Source of the DNA: Elusimicrobia bacterium HGW-Elusimicrobia-3
GTDB taxonomy: Bacteria > Elusimicrobiota > Elusimicrobia > Elusimicrobiales > UBA9959
DNA: 64,000 bases
Assembly (NCBI GenBank): GCA_002840355.1
Contig: PHAL01000002.1
Span: 39,278 to 103,277 of the forward strand
Direction: 5' to 3'
The position numbers and the translations under genes are program-made. The notes under the pieces are model-generated. The model saw only the letters and a program-made list of their open reading frames with translations, was not told the origin of the DNA and made no database searches. Below are positions 27,138 through 56,283 of the stretch, piece by piece. Position 1 is the stretch's first letter; every line of letters starts with the position of its first letter.

Positions 27138-27143
27138 ATACTA

Positions 27144-27310
27144 ACGATAATAGCAAACCCGGACCTGAAGGCCGGGGGCGCAAAGCCGCGGGGCAAAGGG
27201 ACGAGGGTCCACACGCCGGACGGGCTGCCGAAAGTGAGAGCGTGTATTTTGCCGGCCAGGCTACCGAATGAGGAAGTCCATTAATGGGCTGTTCCTGTTC
27301 GGTTTTTTTT
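27144..27310 (+). promoter_or_regulatory. Structured 5' leader ending in an intrinsic terminator (riboswitch/attenuator candidate)
   Basis: Hairpin CCCGGACC-TGAA-GGCCGGG (27158-76) followed by GGCGCAAAGCC. Nested stems GGCAAA/TTTGCC (27192-97/27248-53) and ACACGC/GCGTGT (27211-16/27240-45). A terminator follows. Confidence 0.5.
27264..27310 (+). terminator. Intrinsic terminator located inside the leader, 20 nt before the start codon
   Basis: CCGAA..AGGAAGTCCA-TTAA-TGGGC..TTCCT.TTCGG hairpin (27264-27302) followed by T8 (27303-27310). Confidence 0.6.
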
Positions 27311-27330
27311 ACTTTCAGCGAGGAGGCATT

Positions 27331-29502
27331 ATGTACGCAGCGGGTAAGGCGATAATGGCGACGGCGGCAATGATGCTGCTGCCGTTCTGCGCCTTCGCCC
27401 AGTTCGAGCCCGCGGCTTCCCTGCCGCAGCCCCTGCTGTCGCATACGGCCGTCATCATGGGCGGCCGTATTTACGTTTCCGGCGGCGTCAGCGACCGGGG
27501 CAGCGTGACCGGCGCCGGATACATAAATAACGTCTACTACTGCGCCACGATGAACGAAGACGGCACGCTGGGGGCCTGGCAGCCCGCCAGCGCTATGCCG
27601 GAGCTGCTCGGCCTTGGCCTGCACGCTTCGACGGTGCACAACGAGCGCGTCTACATCCTGGGCGGCATCAACTACTCCGGCCAGCGCAACCTCGTCTACT
27701 ATTCCGGGGCCAAAGCCGACGGCACGCTGAGCGGCTGGATGCGCGGCACCACGCTGCCGCAGCGCCTCTCCGCCCATTCCGCGGCCGTCTACAATAACAG
27801 GATTTACGTGACCGGCGGCATAGCCCGCAACATCGGCCCCGTGAACCTGGTCTACTCCGCGCCCATCAACGCGGACGGTTCCATGGGGGCCTGGCGCGAC
27901 GAAACAGCGCTGCCCTCCACGCTGTTCGGCCACCGCACCTTCGCCAAGGCCGGCAAACTCTACTCCCTCGGCGGTTTTACCGACGCCGGGCTGTACGGGC
28001 CCGGCGGCCTGCCGCCCGCCGGGGTGTCCCGCGGGGTCTACGCGGCGGCCATCAACGCCGACGGTACCCTGGGCGCCTGGACGGCCCAGCCGCAGCTGCC
28101 CTCCAGCCTGGCCTTCTACGGCATGGTGGCCACCGACAAGAGCGTCTACGTGCTGGGCGGTTTCGACGGCGGCGTTACCAACGCGGTCTACTTCTCGCCA
28201 ATCGCCGCCGACGGCGCGCTGGGCGCCTGGCAGGCGCTGCACGCGCTGCCGCAGAACCTGGTGTCGCTGGCGGCCGTGTCCACCCAGGACTACCTGTACT
28301 CCATCGGCGGCGGCCTTTCCTATATAGACGACCCGGTGGACGCCATCTATTTCTCCAGGCTGCGCTCCGAGCCCAAGGCTTTCGTGAAGATGACCCCTTC
28401 CTCCATCAATAAGGACGCCAACGGCAAGTGGGTTACCGTCGTCATCGGCCTGCCCGAGGCCGACGCGGCCGACGTGCTGGCCGAAACCGTCAGGATCTCC
28501 GCCGTGAACGGCGAGCCCGTGACCCCGATCGCGCCCGATCCCAAGTTCGTCGCCAAGGTGCAGAGCGGCGACACCGCCGACTTCGACGGCCTGGCCGGCG
28601 TGACCTACCTGATGCTCAAGTTCATGCGCGCCGACGTGGCGGCTATCATTCCCGACGGCGAGTTCTCGCTGAAGCTGACCGGCCAGCTGGCCGACGGCCG
28701 GAATTTCTCCGGAGAGAGCATGAACCGGGCCCTCTCCAGCAAAAAGACCTTTACCGCCCTGCTCGCCAAGCGCGCGGGCGAGCGCCGCGGCGCCGGCGGC
28801 CTCAAGGTGGACATCCCCGCCGGAGCCTTCAAGGGCAACCCCGAGCTGCTGCTCACCGCCGCTCCCGAGGAAGCCGAAGAGGTGGGCGAGGAGGAGAAAG
28901 GCAAGCGCGCCAAAGGGCTCAAGAATCGCTCGCTGGCGGCCGTTTCCGAAGCTTTCGAATTCGGCCCCCACGGCTCGGTCTTCGAGAAGCCGGTAACCAT
29001 CTCTCTGCCGTACCGCCCCGAGCTGCTGCCCCCGGGCGCCGACGAGAACGCCCTGCAGGTGGCCTACTGGAACGCGGCGGCCGGCGACTGGGAGATACTC
29101 CCCTCGGCAGTCTCCAAAGCCGACAAGTCCGTCAGCGCCCAGACCGGGCACTTCTCTACCTACCAGGTAATGGCCGGCGCCGCCCCCGCGGCAGCCCCCG
29201 CCGCCCCGGCCCCCGTCGCGGCGCTGGGCGAGGTCTATGTTTTCCCGAATCCCGCCAAGGGCGGTGCGGTGCCGGTGCTGCGCGTGGAAGCAGCGGCCGG
29301 CGAGCGGCTGCAGGTAAAGGTGTTCTCCGCCTCGGGCCGTCTGGCCTATGAGGGGGCGGTGAGCGGGGCCCCTGCCGCCGGCGGCGCTTATGAGCTGGAA
29401 CTGCGCGGCTCTTTCCCCAGCGGCGTGTACTATTACCAGGCGGAGGTGCAGAGCGGCGGCGGCAAGCTCAAGCGCTCGGGAAAGTTCGCGGTGGTACGGT
29501 AA
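27331..29502 (+). CDS. Secreted Kelch/beta-propeller repeat protein with a T9SS-type C-terminal sorting domain
   Basis: GGAGG lies 7 nt upstream of the ATG at 27331. Signal peptide is MYAAGKAIMATAAMMLLPFCAFA. There are repeated RIYV(S/T)GG...DGTLGAW units. The C-terminus VYVFPNPAKGG...GVYYYQAEV...GKFAVVR resembles a T9SS CTD. Confidence 0.8.
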   Translation: MYAAGKAIMATAAMMLLPFCAFAQFEPAASLPQPLLSHTAVIMGGRIYVSGGVSDRGSVTGAGYINNVYYCATMNEDGTLGAWQPASAMPELLGLGLHASTVHNERVYILGGINYSGQRNLVYYSGAKADGTLSGWMRGTTLPQRLSAHSAAVYNNRIYVTGGIARNIGPVNLVYSAPINADGSMGAWRDETALPSTLFGHRTFAKAGKLYSLGGFTDAGLYGPGGLPPAGVSRGVYAAAINADGTLGAWTAQPQLPSSLAFYGMVATDKSVYVLGGFDGGVTNAVYFSPIAADGALGAWQALHALPQNLVSLAAVSTQDYLYSIGGGLSYIDDPVDAIYFSRLRSEPKAFVKMTPSSINKDANGKWVTVVIGLPEADAADVLAETVRISAVNGEPVTPIAPDPKFVAKVQSGDTADFDGLAGVTYLMLKFMRADVAAIIPDGEFSLKLTGQLADGRNFSGESMNRALSSKKTFTALLAKRAGERRGAGGLKVDIPAGAFKGNPELLLTAAPEEAEEVGEEEKGKRAKGLKNRSLAAVSEAFEFGPHGSVFEKPVTISLPYRPELLPPGADENALQVAYWNAAAGDWEILPSAVSKADKSVSAQTGHFSTYQVMAGAAPAAAPAAPAPVAALGEVYVFPNPAKGGAVPVLRVEAAAGERLQVKVFSASGRLAYEGAVSGAPAAGGAYELELRGSFPSGVYYYQAEVQSGGGKLKRSGKFAVVR

Positions 29503-32988: not shown

Positions 32989-34947
32989 TTATTCATAGCG
33001 GAGGGCTTCGATGGGGTCCAGCATGGCGGCGCGCATGGCCGGCCAGAAGCCGAAGCCCACGCCGATGAGGGTGGAGAAACCGAAAGCGAAAGATATGGTG
33101 CCGGCGCCCAAGGCCGGTTTGACCTTGGTAAAGAAGAAGGCCGCCCAGCCCAGGCCGAAGCCCAGGCCCACGCCCAGCACCCCGCCTATCAGGCACAGCA
33201 CCACCGCCTCTATCAGGAACTGGCTCAGGATATCGGAATTGCGCGCGCCCAGCGCTTTGCGCAGGCCGATCTCGCGCGTGCGCTCGGTGACGGAAACGAG
33301 CATGATGTTCATGATGCCGATGCCGCCCACCAGGAGCGAGATGCCGGCTATGCCGTAGACCACCAGCGAGAGCTTGCCCATGGTGCTCTTGAACATCTCT
33401 ATCTGCGTCTCGAAGGTGCGCACCTCGAAATCCTCTTCCGCGTCCTCGCGCAGGCCGCGCTCATTGCGCAGCACGCCTATGATCTGGCGCCGCACTTCCT
33501 GGGCGTCGTCGGGCGTGGGGGCGGCGACTTCCACGTAGTCCAGCTTGGTCGCGCCGAACACGCGCTTGCCCGCCGTGCTCAGCGGGATATAGGCCGAGGG
33601 CTGGCCGCCGAAGATGTCCTCGGCCTTGTGGTTCTCGGCCACGCCGACCACGGTAAAGGTGATGCCCTTGATGCGGATCTCGGCGTTCACGGCGTTCTCG
33701 GAGCCGAAGAGTTTCTTGGCCAGCGCCTGGTTGATAACGGCCGTCCTGGCGCGCCCCAGGTTCTCCGCCCTGGTGAAGAAGCGCCCGGTCACCTTGCGGT
33801 TCTCGAAATAGTCGGGCCGCGCGGCCTGCTCGGCCGGGGCGAAACCCTCGCGGCTCTGTACGTTGGCCTCGGTGCGCTTGTCGCCCGCCGATACTTCCAG
33901 GCCGTTGCGCGTCAGCGACGGCGTCACTTTCTCGGCCAGCGGCACGCGCGTACGGATGGCCTCTACCTCGCCCATCGTGAACTTGCGGCGGGGCTTGCCG
34001 TGCTGCCAGCGCGGCGTCACCCACACCTTCTTGGCGTCCTCCTCGCTCGATCCTGAGAGCAGGCTCTTCATGAAGCCCTCGCTGATGGTCATCAGCGAGA
34101 TGATGGCGCCCACGCCTATGAAGATGCCCAGCACCGTCAGGGCGCTGCGCATCTTGTGGCTCCAGATGGCCTTGAAGGCCACCTTGAGCTGCTCGGCGAA
34201 TTCGGAGGGGGAAAAGCTCAGGCGGGCCGGCGGCAGGGCGGCGGCGGCGGCCTTGCCCGGCGCGCGGACGCGGCGCACTTCGTCCGAGACTATGCGGCCG
34301 TCCTTCAGGCGCACGGTGCGGTCGGTCATCGCGGCCACTTCGTCGTCGTGCGTGACGATGATGATGGTCTGGCCCTTCTCGCTCAGGTCCCGGATGACCT
34401 GCATCACTTCCTGGCGGCTGACGGCGTCCAGATTGCCGGTGGGCTCGTCGGCCATGATCACCAGCGGGTCGTTGACGAGCGCGCGGGCTATGGCCACCCG
34501 CTGGCACTGGCCGCCGGAGAGCTCGTTGGATTTGTGCTTTACGCGGTCGGCCAGGCCCACCAGGCGCAGGCAGTCCAGCGCCTTGGCGGCGTCCGAGCCC
34601 AGGCCGGTATAGACCATGGGCAGCATCACGTTGTCGCGCGCCGTGGTGCGCTTTAAAAGGTGGAAAGACTGGAAGATGAAGCCGACCATGCGGCTGCGTA
34701 TGGCCGACAGCCTGCTTTCGGGCAGCCGGGCCGTCGGGTGGCCCGCGAAATAATACTCGCCCTCGTCGGGCCGGTCCAGGAAGCCCATGATGTGCAGCAG
34801 CGTGCTCTTGCCCGAACCAGAAGGTCCGACCAGCGCCACCAGTTCCCCGGCCTGGATGGAGAGCGAGACGGCCTTGAGGGCCTCCACGCGGAAGTCCCCG
34901 GTAGTGTAGGTCTTGGAGACCTCTTTGATCTCTATCAGCGGTCGCAT
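32989..34947 (-). CDS. macB: MacB-type ABC transporter, fused ATPase and permease
   Basis: Walker [10 protein letters not shown], signature LSGGQCQR, Walker B VIMADEPT, then an FtsX-like 4-TM domain with a large periplasmic loop. Confidence 0.9.
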
Positions 34948-35918
34948 CAGAAGCCTACGTTGAAGCCGGACCGCTCCTTGGCCACGCCGGTGGAATAGTA
35001 GACCGTGTCGGTCTCGGCCAGGCCTTCGGTTACCTCTATGCGGGCCTCGTCGGAGGCCCCTACTTTAATTTTCTTGTCCTCGAGTTTGGCCGCGGCGGAA
35101 GCCTTCATGGAGACCGTGGCTTCGCCGTCGCGGTATTTCACGGCCTTCTTGGGCAGCGTCAGCACGTTCTTCTTGCTGCCGGTCACTATCAGCACGTCGG
35201 CGGTCATGCCCGAGCGCAGGGCGGCGAGGCCGCCGGCGGGCAGCACCTTTACCTCGTAGACCACCACGCCGTCCCTGAGCGTGGACTCGTGCGAGATGGC
35301 CAGCACGCGGCCCGTGCGCTTTTCCTTGGCGAAAGCGTCCAGGTAGAACTCGGCGCGCTGCCCTTCCCGGACGGCGCCGATGTCGGTCTCGTCGACGAAA
35401 GTCTTGACTATCAGGCGGTCGGAGACTACGGCCAGTTCTTTGGCGGGGCTGACCGACTGGCCCGGTTCCACCGCGCGTTTTACCACCATGCCGGTGATGG
35501 GGGCCACTACGGGGGTGAGGTTATAGGCCTCCTCCACCATGCGCTTCTCCTCCGGCGTGGACTCTTTTAGCTTCAGCGAATCCATCAGCGCGGTGCGCTC
35601 GCTGGAACTGACCCAGGCCAGCACCTGGCCCTTGGTCACCTGCTGGCCCTCGGTAAAAAGTACTTCCTCCGCCCGGCCGGCCACCGAGGGGGTGACCAGC
35701 ACGCGGTTCTCGGGCTCCACGCTGGCTATGGCCTGAGTCTTGGTGACGAGGGTGCCGCGTTCCGGTTTGACCGCGGCGAGTTCAGCTACGCGCTTGGCCT
35801 CGGCCTTCGCCCGCTTGTTTTTCAGCGCGGCGCAGCTGCCGCCGAACACCAGCAGCAGCGCCAGGCCGAAGATGAATTTCTTTGTCTTGTAAAAAGTTAT
35901 TTTCACTTTATTCTCCAA
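34947..35918 (-). CDS. macA: Periplasmic adaptor (HlyD/MacA family)
   Basis: N-terminal TM, typical membrane-fusion-protein layout, and translational coupling to macB and tolC. Confidence 0.8.
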   Translation of the reverse strand: MENKVKITFYKTKKFIFGLALLLVFGGSCAALKNKRAKAEAKRVAELAAVKPERGTLVTKTQAIASVEPENRVLVTPSVAGRAEEVLFTEGQQVTKGQVLAWVSSSERTALMDSLKLKESTPEEKRMVEEAYNLTPVVAPITGMVVKRAVEPGQSVSPAKELAVVSDRLIVKTFVDETDIGAVREGQRAEFYLDAFAKEKRTGRVLAISHESTLRDGVVVYEVKVLPAGGLAALRSGMTADVLIVTGSKKNVLTLPKKAVKYRDGEATVSMKASAAAKLEDKKIKVGASDEARIEVTEGLAETDTVYYSTGVAKERSGFNVGF

Positions 35919-52863: not shown

Positions 52864-53936
52864 AAAACTCGCTGATAAAGAAATATTCCGTCAGAAAGCT
52901 GGACGCGGAGCTGTTCACGCCGTTCACCATCTCCAGCGGCAGCCACAAGAGCATGACCAACGTACTGTTCACGCTGGAGGCCGCCGGCGGGGTCAAGGGC
53001 TACGGGGAGGCGGCCATCGCCACGCATATCACAGGCGAGACCCGTGAGCGCACTATGCGCAGCCTGGAGAAGGCGGGGGAGCTGCTGTCTGGGCTGGACG
53101 CCGCCGATTATCTCGGCGCCCTGTGCCGCCTGGAGCGCCTGCTGGAGGGCAACCGGGCCGCGCTGGCCGCGGCCGAAATGGCCGTGCTGGACCTCGCCAC
53201 CCGCCTGCAGGGCCTGTCGCTGTGGAAGTTCTTCGGCGGGCGGGTGCCGGCCGTAAAGACCGACGTGACCGTGGTGATCGGGGGCGCGGACGCGGCTTAC
53301 GGCTTCACTAAAAAAATGCGGGCCCGGGGCTTCCGCATCTTCAAGATCAAGACCGGCGTGGACATGGACGAGGACTACCGGCGCCTCGAGGCCGTGCGCC
53401 GGGCCGCGCCGGGCTGCGCCGTCTACCTGGACGCCAACTGCGCCTACTCCGCCGGGGAAGCCGAAAAGTTCATCAGGGGGCTGATGCGGCGGGGGATAAC
53501 GCCCGAGGTGGTGGAGCAGCCGGTGAAGCGGGACGACATCGACGGGCTGGCCTACCTCTCCCGGCGGCTGCCGATGCCGGTCTGCGCGGACGAGTCCGCC
53601 TATTCCCTCGACGACGTGTTCGAGCTGATCCGCCGCGGCGCGGTCACGGCCGTCAACATCAAGCTGACCAAGCTCGGCTTCCTGCGCGCCCGCGAGGTGT
53701 GGGCCCTGGCCCGCGCCAAGGGTATAAAGCTGATGATGGGTGAAATGCTGGAGAGCGAGCTGGCCTCCAGCGCGGCGGCCCAGTTCGCCGCCGGCCTGGG
53801 CGGCTTCGATTTCATAGACCTCGACACGCCTTTCTTTATCAAGGGCAGCGGCCTGCGCCGGCCCGCTTTCCTTTCCCGCGACGGGGTTTACTCGCTGGAC
53901 CGCGTGCGGGCGGGTATCGGCGTGGAGCCCCGCTGA
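52860..53936 (+). CDS. Enolase-superfamily dipeptide epimerase (L-Ala-D/L-Glu epimerase-like)
   Basis: FKIKTG, YLDANCAY, VEQPV and ADES motifs. The ATG overlaps the upstream stop (ATGA). The tracked ORF 52329.. is an out-of-frame extension. Confidence 0.8.
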   Translation: MKNSLIKKYSVRKLDAELFTPFTISSGSHKSMTNVLFTLEAAGGVKGYGEAAIATHITGETRERTMRSLEKAGELLSGLDAADYLGALCRLERLLEGNRAALAAAEMAVLDLATRLQGLSLWKFFGGRVPAVKTDVTVVIGGADAAYGFTKKMRARGFRIFKIKTGVDMDEDYRRLEAVRRAAPGCAVYLDANCAYSAGEAEKFIRGLMRRGITPEVVEQPVKRDDIDGLAYLSRRLPMPVCADESAYSLDDVFELIRRGAVTAVNIKLTKLGFLRAREVWALARAKGIKLMMGEMLESELASSAAAQFAAGLGGFDFIDLDTPFFIKGSGLRRPAFLSRDGVYSLDRVRAGIGVEPR

Positions 53937-54592
53937 TGCGGCTGGCCGCCGCGCTTCTGCTGCTGGCCTGCCTGGCCCTGCCCGCGCGAGCGCAGGTGCT
54001 GCCCGACCTGCCGGACCTGGGCGACCTGCCCGAGCCGACGCGCTACCTGGCCGGCTACCTGTCGGCCGGCACCGGCTGGAGCAGGCCCGTGGGCGGGCAC
54101 TGGGGCGACGGCGACGCCGGTTTCAAGACTTCCCGCACGCTGGTGGTCGCGGCCTCCCGGCGGGTCGACGAGTTCCTGAGCTACGGGGCCGAGGCCGCCT
54201 ATGCCGGCGGCTACGCCAGCAACTCCTCCGAAGGCCTCAAGCTGAAAGTCTTCTCGCTGACGCCTTTCGTGCGGGCCTCCTACCCGGAGGGGAACAAGGT
54301 CTTTTACGGCATACTGGGCGCCGGCGTCTACCAGTGGAACAGCCCCGCCTACACTTCGGGAGGGGTGCGTTACGCTTCTGATTCCGGCTCCAGCGGCGGG
54401 TTGAACTTCGGCGGGGGCATGGGCTTCCCCTTCTGGTTCGGCACCACGGCCGGCCTGGACCTGCGCTGGCACAAGATCTTCAACATGAACGGCGCCAGCC
54501 TGGACCTGGGTTCGGCTGACAGCGTGAATTTCACCTTGACGCTGCAGTACGGGGTCTGGAGGGATAAAAAGACTCCCTTGCCGGCACCTTGA
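53936..54592 (+). CDS. Small outer-membrane beta-barrel protein
   Basis: Signal peptide LLLLACLALPARAQ with alternating-hydrophobic, Gly/Tyr-rich strands. Confidence 0.55.
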   Translation: MRLAAALLLLACLALPARAQVLPDLPDLGDLPEPTRYLAGYLSAGTGWSRPVGGHWGDGDAGFKTSRTLVVAASRRVDEFLSYGAEAAYAGGYASNSSEGLKLKVFSLTPFVRASYPEGNKVFYGILGAGVYQWNSPAYTSGGVRYASDSGSSGGLNFGGGMGFPFWFGTTAGLDLRWHKIFNMNGASLDLGSADSVNFTLTLQYGVWRDKKTPLPAP

Positions 54593-54616
54593 CAAGTCAA
54601 TACCATCTGCTATAAT
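54589..54616 (+). promoter_or_regulatory. Near-consensus sigma70 promoter
   Basis: TTGACA (54589-94, overlapping the upstream TGA), 16-nt spacer, TATAAT (54611-16) with TG at -15/-14 (TCTGCTATAAT). Confidence 0.55.
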
Positions 54617-54620
54617 ATGT

Positions 54621-54705
54621 GTGGACGCCGTATATCGGCCTCCACCTGTGAACTCCCCGAAACAAGGGAGAGCGATAACCCCCCAAAAGGGGGTTATCGC
54701 TTTTT
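54621..54705 (+). ncRNA. Candidate ~85-nt sRNA (promoter, two hairpins, strong terminator); alternatively a 3' UTR or terminator of the upstream operon
   Basis: Hairpin GTGGACGCCG/CGGCCTCCAC (54621-45), hairpin CTCCC/GGGAG (54654-70), and the terminator 54672-54705. Confidence 0.4.
54672..54705 (+). terminator. Strong intrinsic terminator
   Basis: GCGATAACCCCC (54672-83) pairs with GGGGGTTATCGC (54689-54700), followed by TTTTT. Confidence 0.8.
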
Positions 54706-54792
54706 CCGGCCTTTTCAGTCGTCCGGCATAATTTGTATGATATATATAATAATAAGGCGGGAATCCGCCATTGCGACTTTTACGGAGGCTTT

Positions 54793-56283
54793 ATGGGTAA
54801 ATTCGTGGAATGCGTTCCTAATTTCAGCGAAGGCCGCGACCTCTCCAAGATCAACGCGATAGTGGACGCCGCCAGGGCGGTGCCGGGCGTGCTCATCCTC
54901 GACGTGGAAAAAGACGCCGACCACAACCGCACCGTGCTCACCTTCATGGCCCCCGTGGAGACCGCCGCGGACGCCATGTTCGCCGTCACCAAAAAAGCCG
55001 CCCAGCTCATAGACCTCAACCACCACAAGGGGGAACATCCCCGCATGGGCGCCACCGACGTGGCCCCGTTCATCCCGATCATGGATTCCACCATAGAGGA
55101 CTGCGTGGCCCTGGCCGTGAAGGCCGGCGAGCGCATTGGCCGCGAGCTGAACATCCCGGTCTACCTCTACGACCGCGCCGCCAAATTCGAACACCGCCGC
55201 GACCTGGCCAAGGTGCGCAAGGGCCAGTTCGAAGGCCTGAAAGAAGTCATCGGCAAGGACCCCGAGCGCGTGCCGGATTTCGGCCCCAACCATATCCACC
55301 CCACCGCCGGCGCCATGGCCGTGGGCGCCCGCAACCAGATCGTCAATTTCAACGTCAACCTGAACACCACCGACATGGAGTTCGCCAAGGGCCTCGCCAA
55401 GAAGATCCGCACCTCCGGCGGCGGGCTGCCGGCCCTGCGCGCCAAGGAGATATTTCTGGAGAGCAAGGGCCAGGTGCAGATGTCCACGGTGCTGACCGAT
55501 TACAAGACCACCTCCATCAAGCGCGTGATGGACGAGATGCAGAAGGACCTCGGGCCCAAGGGCATTGCCGTCACCGGCACCGAGCTCATCGGCCTCACCA
55601 CCCAGGACGCCCTGACCGACTACGCGGTGGAGAACCTGCAGGTGAAGGATTTCAAGAAGGAAGAGCAGGTGCTCGAGACCAAGCTGCTCAAGCTGCTCTC
55701 CTCCTGGCAGGCGGGCGCCAACCTCTTCGTGGACGCGCTGGCCAACACCGATCCCACCCCGGGCGGCGGTTCGGCGGCCGGCGTGAGCGGCGCGGCCGGC
55801 TGCGCGCTGGGCCAGATGGCCCTCGGCATCACGCTGCGGAGCAAGAAGCTCGAAGAGGCCAAGCGGCCGGCCCTGCGCGAGCTGCACGAGCGCCTGGGCG
55901 GTCACAAAGCGGCGCTGCAGGCCTGCGTAAGCGAGGATTCCGCCTCGTTCGACGTTTTCATGGAAGCCATGAAGCTGCCCAAGGACAACCCCGAGCGCAA
56001 GGCGAAGATGCAGGCGGCCCTGAAGCACGCCGCCGAGGTGCCGCTCAAAACCGCCCGCCTGGCCGCCGAGGCCATGGCCGGCCTGACGGTCTGCCAGGGC
56101 TCCGTCTCCTCCCACGTGATGAGCGACTACCGCAGCGCCCGCTACCTGCTGGAAGCGGCCATCCGCTGCGCGGCCGAGAACGTTTTCATCAACGCCGAGG
56201 GCCTGGAGGACAAGGCCTTTGCGGAGAAGATAACCGCCGAGGTGAAGGGCTACCTGGCCTCCTGTGAAGCGGTGAAGGCTTAA
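54793..56283 (+). CDS. Fused glutamate formimidoyltransferase / formimidoyl-THF cyclodeaminase
   Basis: GGAGG lies before the ATG at 54793. It has the FVECVPNFSEGRD N-terminus and a C-terminal cyclodeaminase-like helical domain containing TPGGGS. Confidence 0.88.
   Translation: MGKFVECVPNFSEGRDLSKINAIVDAARAVPGVLILDVEKDADHNRTVLTFMAPVETAADAMFAVTKKAAQLIDLNHHKGEHPRMGATDVAPFIPIMDSTIEDCVALAVKAGERIGRELNIPVYLYDRAAKFEHRRDLAKVRKGQFEGLKEVIGKDPERVPDFGPNHIHPTAGAMAVGARNQIVNFNVNLNTTDMEFAKGLAKKIRTSGGGLPALRAKEIFLESKGQVQMSTVLTDYKTTSIKRVMDEMQKDLGPKGIAVTGTELIGLTTQDALTDYAVENLQVKDFKKEEQVLETKLLKLLSSWQAGANLFVDALANTDPTPGGGSAAGVSGAAGCALGQMALGITLRSKKLEEAKRPALRELHERLGGHKAALQACVSEDSASFDVFMEAMKLPKDNPERKAKMQAALKHAAEVPLKTARLAAEAMAGLTVCQGSVSSHVMSDYRSARYLLEAAIRCAAENVFINAEGLEDKAFAEKITAEVKGYLASCEAVKA

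Follow-up and report, generated by a model that had tools for sequence, protein, structure and literature searches.

RsaE/RoxS (Rfam RF01820) are C-rich small RNAs (sRNAs) of Firmicutes whose C-rich motifs are exposed in loops. The Rfam motifs Bacteroidales-1, Chlorobi-1, and Acido-Lenti-1 are orphan, lineage-specific sRNAs that emerged from comparative genomics, and MicF is an enterobacterial sRNA that adjoins ompC in divergent orientation. For Elusimicrobia, a phylum almost wholly uncultivated, no regulatory RNA was described in the literature searched, and a full-text search returned nothing on Elusimicrobia sRNAs or on a family corresponding to the one reported here. We analyzed a 64,000-nt stretch of Elusimicrobia bacterium HGW-Elusimicrobia-3 (contig PHAL01000002.1, positions 39,278-103,277, forward strand), hereafter the window, in which a sequence-only reading had proposed a self-contained small transcription unit between a small gene for an outer-membrane protein (OMP)-like product and ftcD. 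That proposal held: promoter, RNA body, and terminator were conserved together, the -35 element was invariant, and the helices covaried. The unit is very probably a functional, independent RNA gene, and our favored reading, which we consider likely, is that it encodes a structured sRNA of ~82 nt that, most likely, would act as a riboregulator in trans. At the level of comparative sequence analysis, the existence of this predicted sRNA, its boundaries, its structure, its conservation, and its independence of ftcD were demonstrated.

The unit resembled RsaE/RoxS in being short (~80-100 nt), in having its own promoter, several hairpins, and an intrinsic terminator, and in carrying conserved UCCC/CCCC stretches that could pair with G-rich Shine-Dalgarno (SD) sequences. 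With the orphan motifs it shared restriction to one phylum-level lineage, covariation, promoter and terminator signals, and a conserved genomic position. A genome scan with FtcD gave 60 loci, 55 from uncultivated Elusimicrobia and five from distant Bacteroidota/Ignavibacteria. The 55 Elusimicrobia loci came from Elusimicrobiales/Elusimicrobiaceae metagenome-assembled genomes (MAGs), many of them from groundwater, with FtcD identities of 69-95%. Loci were labeled L001-L101; genomes were represented by their ftcD loci only, and the metagenome by contigs. With a covariance model built from 37 copies of the sRNA, one copy scoring at least 62 bits was detected in the window and in each of 43 of the 55 Elusimicrobia loci, and edge-truncated remnants were present in two further Elusimicrobia loci. 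None of the five ftcD loci from outside Elusimicrobia was matched. Each locus held a single copy, and the matches of the model on the minus strand consisted of the palindromic terminator only. The sRNA was missing from eight ftcD loci of related genomes, the search being limited to those loci.

When metagenomes were scanned for nothing but the terminator sequence (GCKAWAACCCSCYRAAMGSGGGTTWT), 41 contigs were retrieved, and every one of them carried the sRNA (38 at full length, three cut by the contig edge). Because all 41 contigs carried it, the terminator sequence is a signature of the sRNA and not a generic repeat. The search for homologues in related genomes recovered the unit with promoter and terminator in more than 80 Elusimicrobia sequences. 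The model-based alignment held 82 sRNA copies, 67 of them distinct, and 69 distinct upstream sequences were available for comparison of the promoter. Since the unit was conserved in 82 related sequences with covariation, it represents more than a chance arrangement of signals. A repeated or mobile element was considered and rejected, as there was no second copy in the window and blastn searches of plasmids and phages were without a match. A pattern scan of IMG/VR returned two contigs in which only the terminator core matched (model positions 62-84).

The promoter of the sRNA was located at 54589-54616 on the forward strand, the strand of all sRNA features given here. It comprised the -35 hexamer TTGACA (54589-54594), a 16-nt spacer, and an extended -10 element, TG-C-TATAAT, at 54608-54616 (TG 54608-54609, TATAAT 54611-54616). 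The sequence-only reading had called this near-consensus promoter the best in the window, and its agreement with the sigma-70 consensus was 12 of 12 positions in addition to the extended -10. It was the sole perfect match to TTGACA-16-TATAAT in the 64 kb, where three sites with at most two mismatches were found versus 0.36 expected. The 69 distinct upstream sequences all had the same -35 hexamer and a spacer of 16-17 nt, and varied very little at the TG or at the T-A---T positions of the -10. As had been noticed earlier, the promoter begins inside a stop codon: the TGA that ends the OMP-like gene upstream, a 218-aa open reading frame (ORF; 53936-54592), falls within TTGACA. In blastn comparisons the -35 element, RNA body, and terminator were conserved as a single block, with similarity decaying on both flanks. 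From promoter geometry, transcription was predicted to start at the G at 54623 (±2 nt), 7 nt past the -10 and at the base of the first hairpin, and the spacing between the -10 and this hairpin was kept in the alignment of homologues.

The -35 hexamer is part of a conserved palindrome-like sequence, CTTGACAAGTCAA (54588-54600 in the window and present in most homologues), which holds the inverted repeat TTGAC-AA-GTCAA. The second half of the repeat was missing in a minority of copies. This repeat over the -35 may be a candidate operator or regulator binding site.

The predicted transcript of ~82 nt folded as a hairpin P1, a linker, a hairpin P2, and a terminator followed by U5. The minimum free energy (MFE) of 54620-54708 was -46.8 kcal/mol (z = -7.17; none of 200 shuffles folded as well), and the MFE structure made up 44% of the ensemble. 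P1 (54621-54645) paired GUGGA-C-GCCG with CGGC-C-UCCAC around a mismatch of C54626 and C54640. Its base followed the pattern GG-N-[C]-G...C-[C]-N'-CC, its tip varied in length and sequence, and its fourth position was unpaired in nearly all copies; of the 67 distinct sequences, 54 had C.C there and 7 had U.C. The linker CUGUGAA (54646-54652; consensus A-A/C-N-U-G-U/A-G-A-A) was single-stranded in fold and alignment, and is presumably part of a conserved accessible segment. In P2 (54653-54670) CUCCC paired with GGGAG; elsewhere the pairing was mostly UCCCC/GGGGA, or UCCUC/GAGGA in L013 and L018, with a C-rich, conserved 5' arm and a variable loop. The L029-L052 clade had ACCCCCC variants of the linker-P2 segment. 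P3, the intrinsic terminator (54671-54705), had a palindromic stem of 13 bp at 54671-54701, AGCGAUAACCCCC-CAAAA-GGGGGUUAUCGCU, followed by U5. Both hairpins and the terminator were thus found where the sequence-only reading had placed them; the terminator stem had been counted as 12 bp, and the mismatch in P1 had gone unmentioned.

Covariation was evaluated over the 67 distinct sequences. Standard pairs filled 95% of cells, and changes on both sides of a pair were observed in 12 of 25 pairs (six of eight in P1, three of five in P2, and three of 12 in P3). Scored for covariation, the alignment gave 0.263, versus 0.105 for column shuffles, none of 500 of which reached 0.263, and at most 0.055 when partners were slid. 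The result was similar in a MAFFT alignment made independently of the model. The terminator, with 12 pairs in the family model and 98% of cells paired, was nearly invariant in sequence. Conservation of sequence was also seen at the base of P1 and in the linker together with the 5' arm of P2 (A-A/C-N-UG-U/A-GAAC-UCCCC), which defined UG(U/A)GAAC-UCCCC as the conserved, presumably accessible element. Two stretches, CCUCCAC and CUCCCC, had been put forward earlier as anti-SD sequences. In the second of these, (C)UCCCC was conserved in sequence along with the linker. The first is the 3' arm of P1, in which CCUCC becomes CCGCC, CCACC, or CCGCU in step with the partner arm; because this arm covaries as a helix, CCUCC is not a conserved anti-SD sequence.

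These data also bear on the explanation that there is no functional RNA at all, and that the signals are those of a terminator of the OMP-like gene (bidirectional in some genomes) beside a chance promoter, or of a small ORF at 54617-54862. The palindromic terminator does end convergent genes as well in L021, L045, and L096, and an 81-codon ORF starts at 54617. However, P1 and P2, which are dispensable for termination, were conserved with compensatory changes; the constancy of the -35 and the extended -10 through 69 distinct sequences has no place in such an explanation, and the unit persisted in L021, L060, L025, L094, and L096, where no OMP gene lies upstream. The small ORF was rejected as a candidate: its ATG at 54617 was not conserved, and indels of 1-6 nt in the loops of P1 and P2 break the frame, so there is no conserved ORF. 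We therefore consider it extremely unlikely that no functional RNA is made. The unit displayed three features of an independent sRNA, namely its own conserved promoter, its own intrinsic terminator with a predicted 3' end, and varied gene contexts.

Rfam 15 (4227 models) was compared with the whole window at gathering thresholds and with the sRNA locus at E <= 10. At gathering thresholds nothing was found at the sRNA, and the sole hit of the window was a c-di-GMP-I riboswitch at 27142-27232. At E <= 10 the best scores at the sRNA locus were at most 19.4 bits (E >= 1), versus thresholds of at least 55 bits, and were driven by the terminator hairpin. The Rfam comparison, proposed along with the sequence-only reading, accordingly placed the sRNA in none of the 4227 described families. 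By gathering score it belongs to none of Bacteroidales-1, Chlorobi-1, and Acido-Lenti-1, and it differs from RsaE/RoxS in its phylum, in the lack of an RF01820 match at E <= 10, and in its C-run, which is the 5' arm of P2 and thus half buried instead of exposed in a loop. As judged from these searches, the sRNA defines a new lineage-specific family of groundwater and sediment Elusimicrobia (Elusimicrobiales).

The gene order in the window was a family-4 glycosyltransferase (GT4), an enolase-superfamily MR/MLE protein (MLE), the 218-aa OMP-like protein, the sRNA, ftcD, and an acyl-CoA dehydrogenase (ACAD). The product of ftcD is a formiminotransferase-cyclodeaminase with the domains FTCD_N, FTCD, and FTCD_C. 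The OMP-like protein was without a Pfam match and is called an OMP only on account of its signal peptide and C-terminal aromatic residue. GT4-MLE-OMP-sRNA-ftcD-ACAD was also the usual order across loci, and in ~70 of the 82 sequences the sRNA preceded ftcD in the same orientation, the distance being 75-260 nt in most loci. In the related genomes of L033 and L047 the order MLE(-OMP)-ftcD was kept with no sRNA in the short spacer, an indication that some lineages have lost the RNA gene or carry it elsewhere.

Such a position would suit a cis-acting leader, either a riboswitch or a protein-dependent attenuator, of an operon of ftcD, acyl-CoA dehydrogenase, and ETF, in which the terminator would be read through in response to a ligand or a protein. 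In keeping with a leader, the linkage to ftcD was kept in L021, L028, L060, and L094, where other genes had taken the place of the usual upstream ones, and the conserved internal mismatch of P1 could serve as a binding pocket. Nevertheless, a promoter-like element of its own was found for ftcD between the terminator and the gene. In the window this AT-rich element, outside the sRNA on the forward strand, spans 54712-54750 and reads TTTTCA-18-TATGAT (54712-54741) followed by TATAAT (54745-54750). A GC hairpin, GGCGG-GAAT-CCGCC (54756-54769), presumed to mark the start of the ftcD 5' untranslated region, comes next on that strand and has a counterpart of variable sequence at the same place elsewhere; the SD sequence GGAGG (54784-54788) and the ATG (54793) of ftcD complete the region. 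The consensus of the element was CTTTCMG-N18-TATAAT-TTATATATATAA; AT-rich sequence and then a small hairpin came after it, and this arrangement (54712-54779 in the window) was at the same position in L001-L101. It stayed beside ftcD in six loci without the sRNA (L026, L033, L037, L041, L046, and L053), and also where the sRNA was 1-3 kb away (L021, L025, and L045). A separate ftcD promoter had been suspected earlier at 54745-54760; a conserved ftcD element does exist, and the -10 conserved in the alignment is TATGAT at 54736-54741, with the TATAAT just after it.

Gene contexts pointed in the same direction, with convergent or unrelated genes between the sRNA and ftcD in L021, L045, L025, and L039. 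In L021 and L045 the sRNA was flanked by a TPR gene on the minus strand and by a convergent gene for an M28 peptidase; the stop codon of the peptidase gene overlapped the sRNA terminator, and ftcD followed 1.1 kb further on. A GT1 glycosyltransferase gene came after the sRNA in L025 and L062, and a convergent GT1 gene in L096, where ftcD was not seen within 2.2 kb. A convergent gene also followed the sRNA in L039, with ftcD ~3 kb downstream, and in L100, with no ftcD within ~2.9 kb. In L042 an extra gene separated the sRNA from the OMP gene. Insertions resembling miniature inverted-repeat transposable elements (MITEs) were tolerated between the sRNA and ftcD. Folding and inspection revealed no competing antiterminator, the alternatives amounting to 3-4 bp versus the 12-13 bp of the terminator, and no Rfam riboswitch matched at E <= 10. 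With a promoter element and genes intervening and a single dominant fold, the locus lacked the marks of a riboswitch or attenuator. That the unit need not be the leader of ftcD, as the sequence-only reading had argued, was borne out by the retention of the ftcD element where the sRNA is absent and by the convergent and inserted genes. A leader function is therefore unlikely.

The nearest riboswitches by context are THF-I (RF01831) and THF-II/folE motif (RF02977). The likeness lies in the adjoining ftcD, a gene of folate-dependent one-carbon metabolism and histidine catabolism, and in the pyrimidine-pyrimidine internal mismatch. In contrast to these riboswitches, the sRNA matched neither model, had its own terminator without an alternative structure, and was separated from ftcD by a distinct promoter element and, in some loci, by intervening genes.

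Since the linkage to ftcD is strong and survives upstream replacement, a functional relation is possible, and the sRNA could be tied to the ftcD operon without being its leader. One form of such a tie would be a stand-alone sensor sRNA that acts in trans in the manner of a riboswitch rather than by seed pairing. The pyrimidine.C pocket of P1 would then bind a pterin- or folate-type metabolite, a metabolite of the histidine pathway, or a pathway-specific protein, and binding would change the exposure of UGUGAAC-UCCCC. We regard a sensor of this kind as very unlikely.

In the favored reading, an independent trans-acting riboregulator, the strong sigma-70-type promoter would drive the sRNA and the intrinsic terminator would end the transcript. 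The segment UGUGAACUCCCC, made up of the linker and the C-rich arm, would bind by base pairing to G-rich sites, possibly ribosome-binding sites, in mRNAs encoded elsewhere in the genome, and P1 and the terminator would provide stability, a platform for protein binding, or both. We looked for targets at the start regions of neighboring genes. Duplex energies of the sRNA with its own ftcD start region showed only a small advantage over those with shuffled targets (mean z = -0.67). In the swap test at the ftcD start, a genome's own sRNA did no better than the sRNAs of other clades (quantile 0.50). The ftcD start region was rejected as a target on this swap quantile and because a strong duplex was confined to one clade and ran through the non-conserved, paired arm of P1. 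The start regions of OMP, ACAD, MLE, and GT4 gave no signal and were likewise rejected. Target prediction at the neighboring genes consequently lent no support to repression by SD pairing at their start regions. As no conserved pairing was found at ftcD, OMP, or the other neighboring starts, base pairing in trans through the C-rich segment can only be inferred, and we hold it to be plausible while somewhat short of probable.

The clade with the strong duplex deserves description. In L032, L052, and L061 (ftcD -14 to +7) and in L049 (-23 to +7), GCCCGUUGAA...CCCCG was complementary to the SD sequence and start codon of ftcD, CGCGGAGGUGCUUCGAUGGGC, at -24 to -26 kcal/mol. The duplex was weaker in L029 and L050 (-18 to -19 kcal/mol), was lost in L030 despite the same seed, and was not seen in other clades. 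Elsewhere in the window, the start region GGUGGAGG of a 198-codon ORF on the minus strand (34947-35540) was perfectly complementary to CCUCCACC of the P1 3' arm. This duplex, at -31.9 kcal/mol, was the best among the 57 start regions of the window. Because the P1 3' arm is paired and not conserved, the complementarity is probably fortuitous.

MicF offers a parallel, since there too an independent sRNA gene is the immediate neighbor of a small gene of the outer-membrane beta-barrel-like kind. The Elusimicrobia sRNA differs in standing in tandem with the OMP-like gene, and its complementarity to the OMP start was not above controls.

Several observations weigh against a trans-acting riboregulator. 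Pairing with the starts of ftcD, OMP, ACAD, MLE, and GT4 was no better than with shuffled or foreign seeds (quantiles 0.50-0.66), and the complement of the conserved segment was not enriched in the 64-kb window (15 matches versus 18.9 expected). UCCCC, half of the proposed seed, is paired in P2 and only partly accessible. The position upstream of ftcD in nearly all loci, at 75-260 nt in most of them, could mean a functional tie that a trans-acting sRNA leaves unexplained. Moreover, the near-invariance of the terminator sequence exceeds what termination needs and is a hint of a protein partner.

This last point leads to the explanation that the RNA is an abundant, housekeeping-type sRNA that binds protein, sequestering or scaffolding it, with the P1 base, including its Y.C mismatch, and the terminator hairpin as recognition elements. 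In its favor, the very strong and conserved promoter suggests that expression would be high and constitutive. Conservation went beyond pairing to the sequence itself at the base of P1, at its mismatch, and in the stem of the terminator, and there was no conserved complementarity to targets nearby. On the other hand, inspection of the alignment revealed no repeated protein-binding motif, such as the GGA-in-loop repeats of CsrB/RsmZ, and annotation of the neighbors revealed no linked gene for an RNA-binding protein. We consider a protein-binding RNA rather improbable, while giving it a real share of the expectation.

Owing to the covariance model, the clear boundaries, the textbook sigma-70 promoter, and the more than 80 homologues, the sRNA is a ready candidate for an Rfam family and for look-up in metatranscriptomes. 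Its signals are also evidence that canonical TTGACA/TG-TATAAT promoters are in use in these Elusimicrobia together with intrinsic termination, a help in annotating their MAGs. An sRNA with its own promoter and terminator is of a familiar kind and no function was established, so the advance is incremental unless the link to ftcD proves functional.

A few further features were observed around the locus. Transposase-like ORFs replaced the OMP gene directly upstream of the sRNA promoter in three metagenome contigs, L094 (387-1643, +), L086 (2363-2929, +), and L072 (188-1420, -). Homology linked the L094 and L086 proteins, the former of which was without a Pfam match. The MITE-like elements carried inverted repeats at their ends, GGGGTCAGGTCTT...AAGACCTGACCCC, and were found directly past the sRNA terminator and ahead of the ftcD element in L002 (2812-2905), L029, L049, and L061. 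In L068, whose true copy is edge-truncated, a second, weak match to the covariance model (43 bits; 1116-1210, +) was located 1.1 kb past that copy and immediately ahead of ftcD. This weak match had a C-rich stretch and a terminator resembling that of the sRNA, AACAGAAAACCCGCCGAAAGCGGGUUUUCUGUU, with no recognizable promoter. It may be a duplicate that has degenerated, or else a terminator unrelated to the sRNA. Finally, the c-di-GMP-I riboswitch (27142-27232, +) scored 50.9 bits, above the gathering score, and was positioned directly upstream of an ORF (27268-29502, +) whose 744-aa product has Kelch repeats and a hydrophobic segment at its N terminus.

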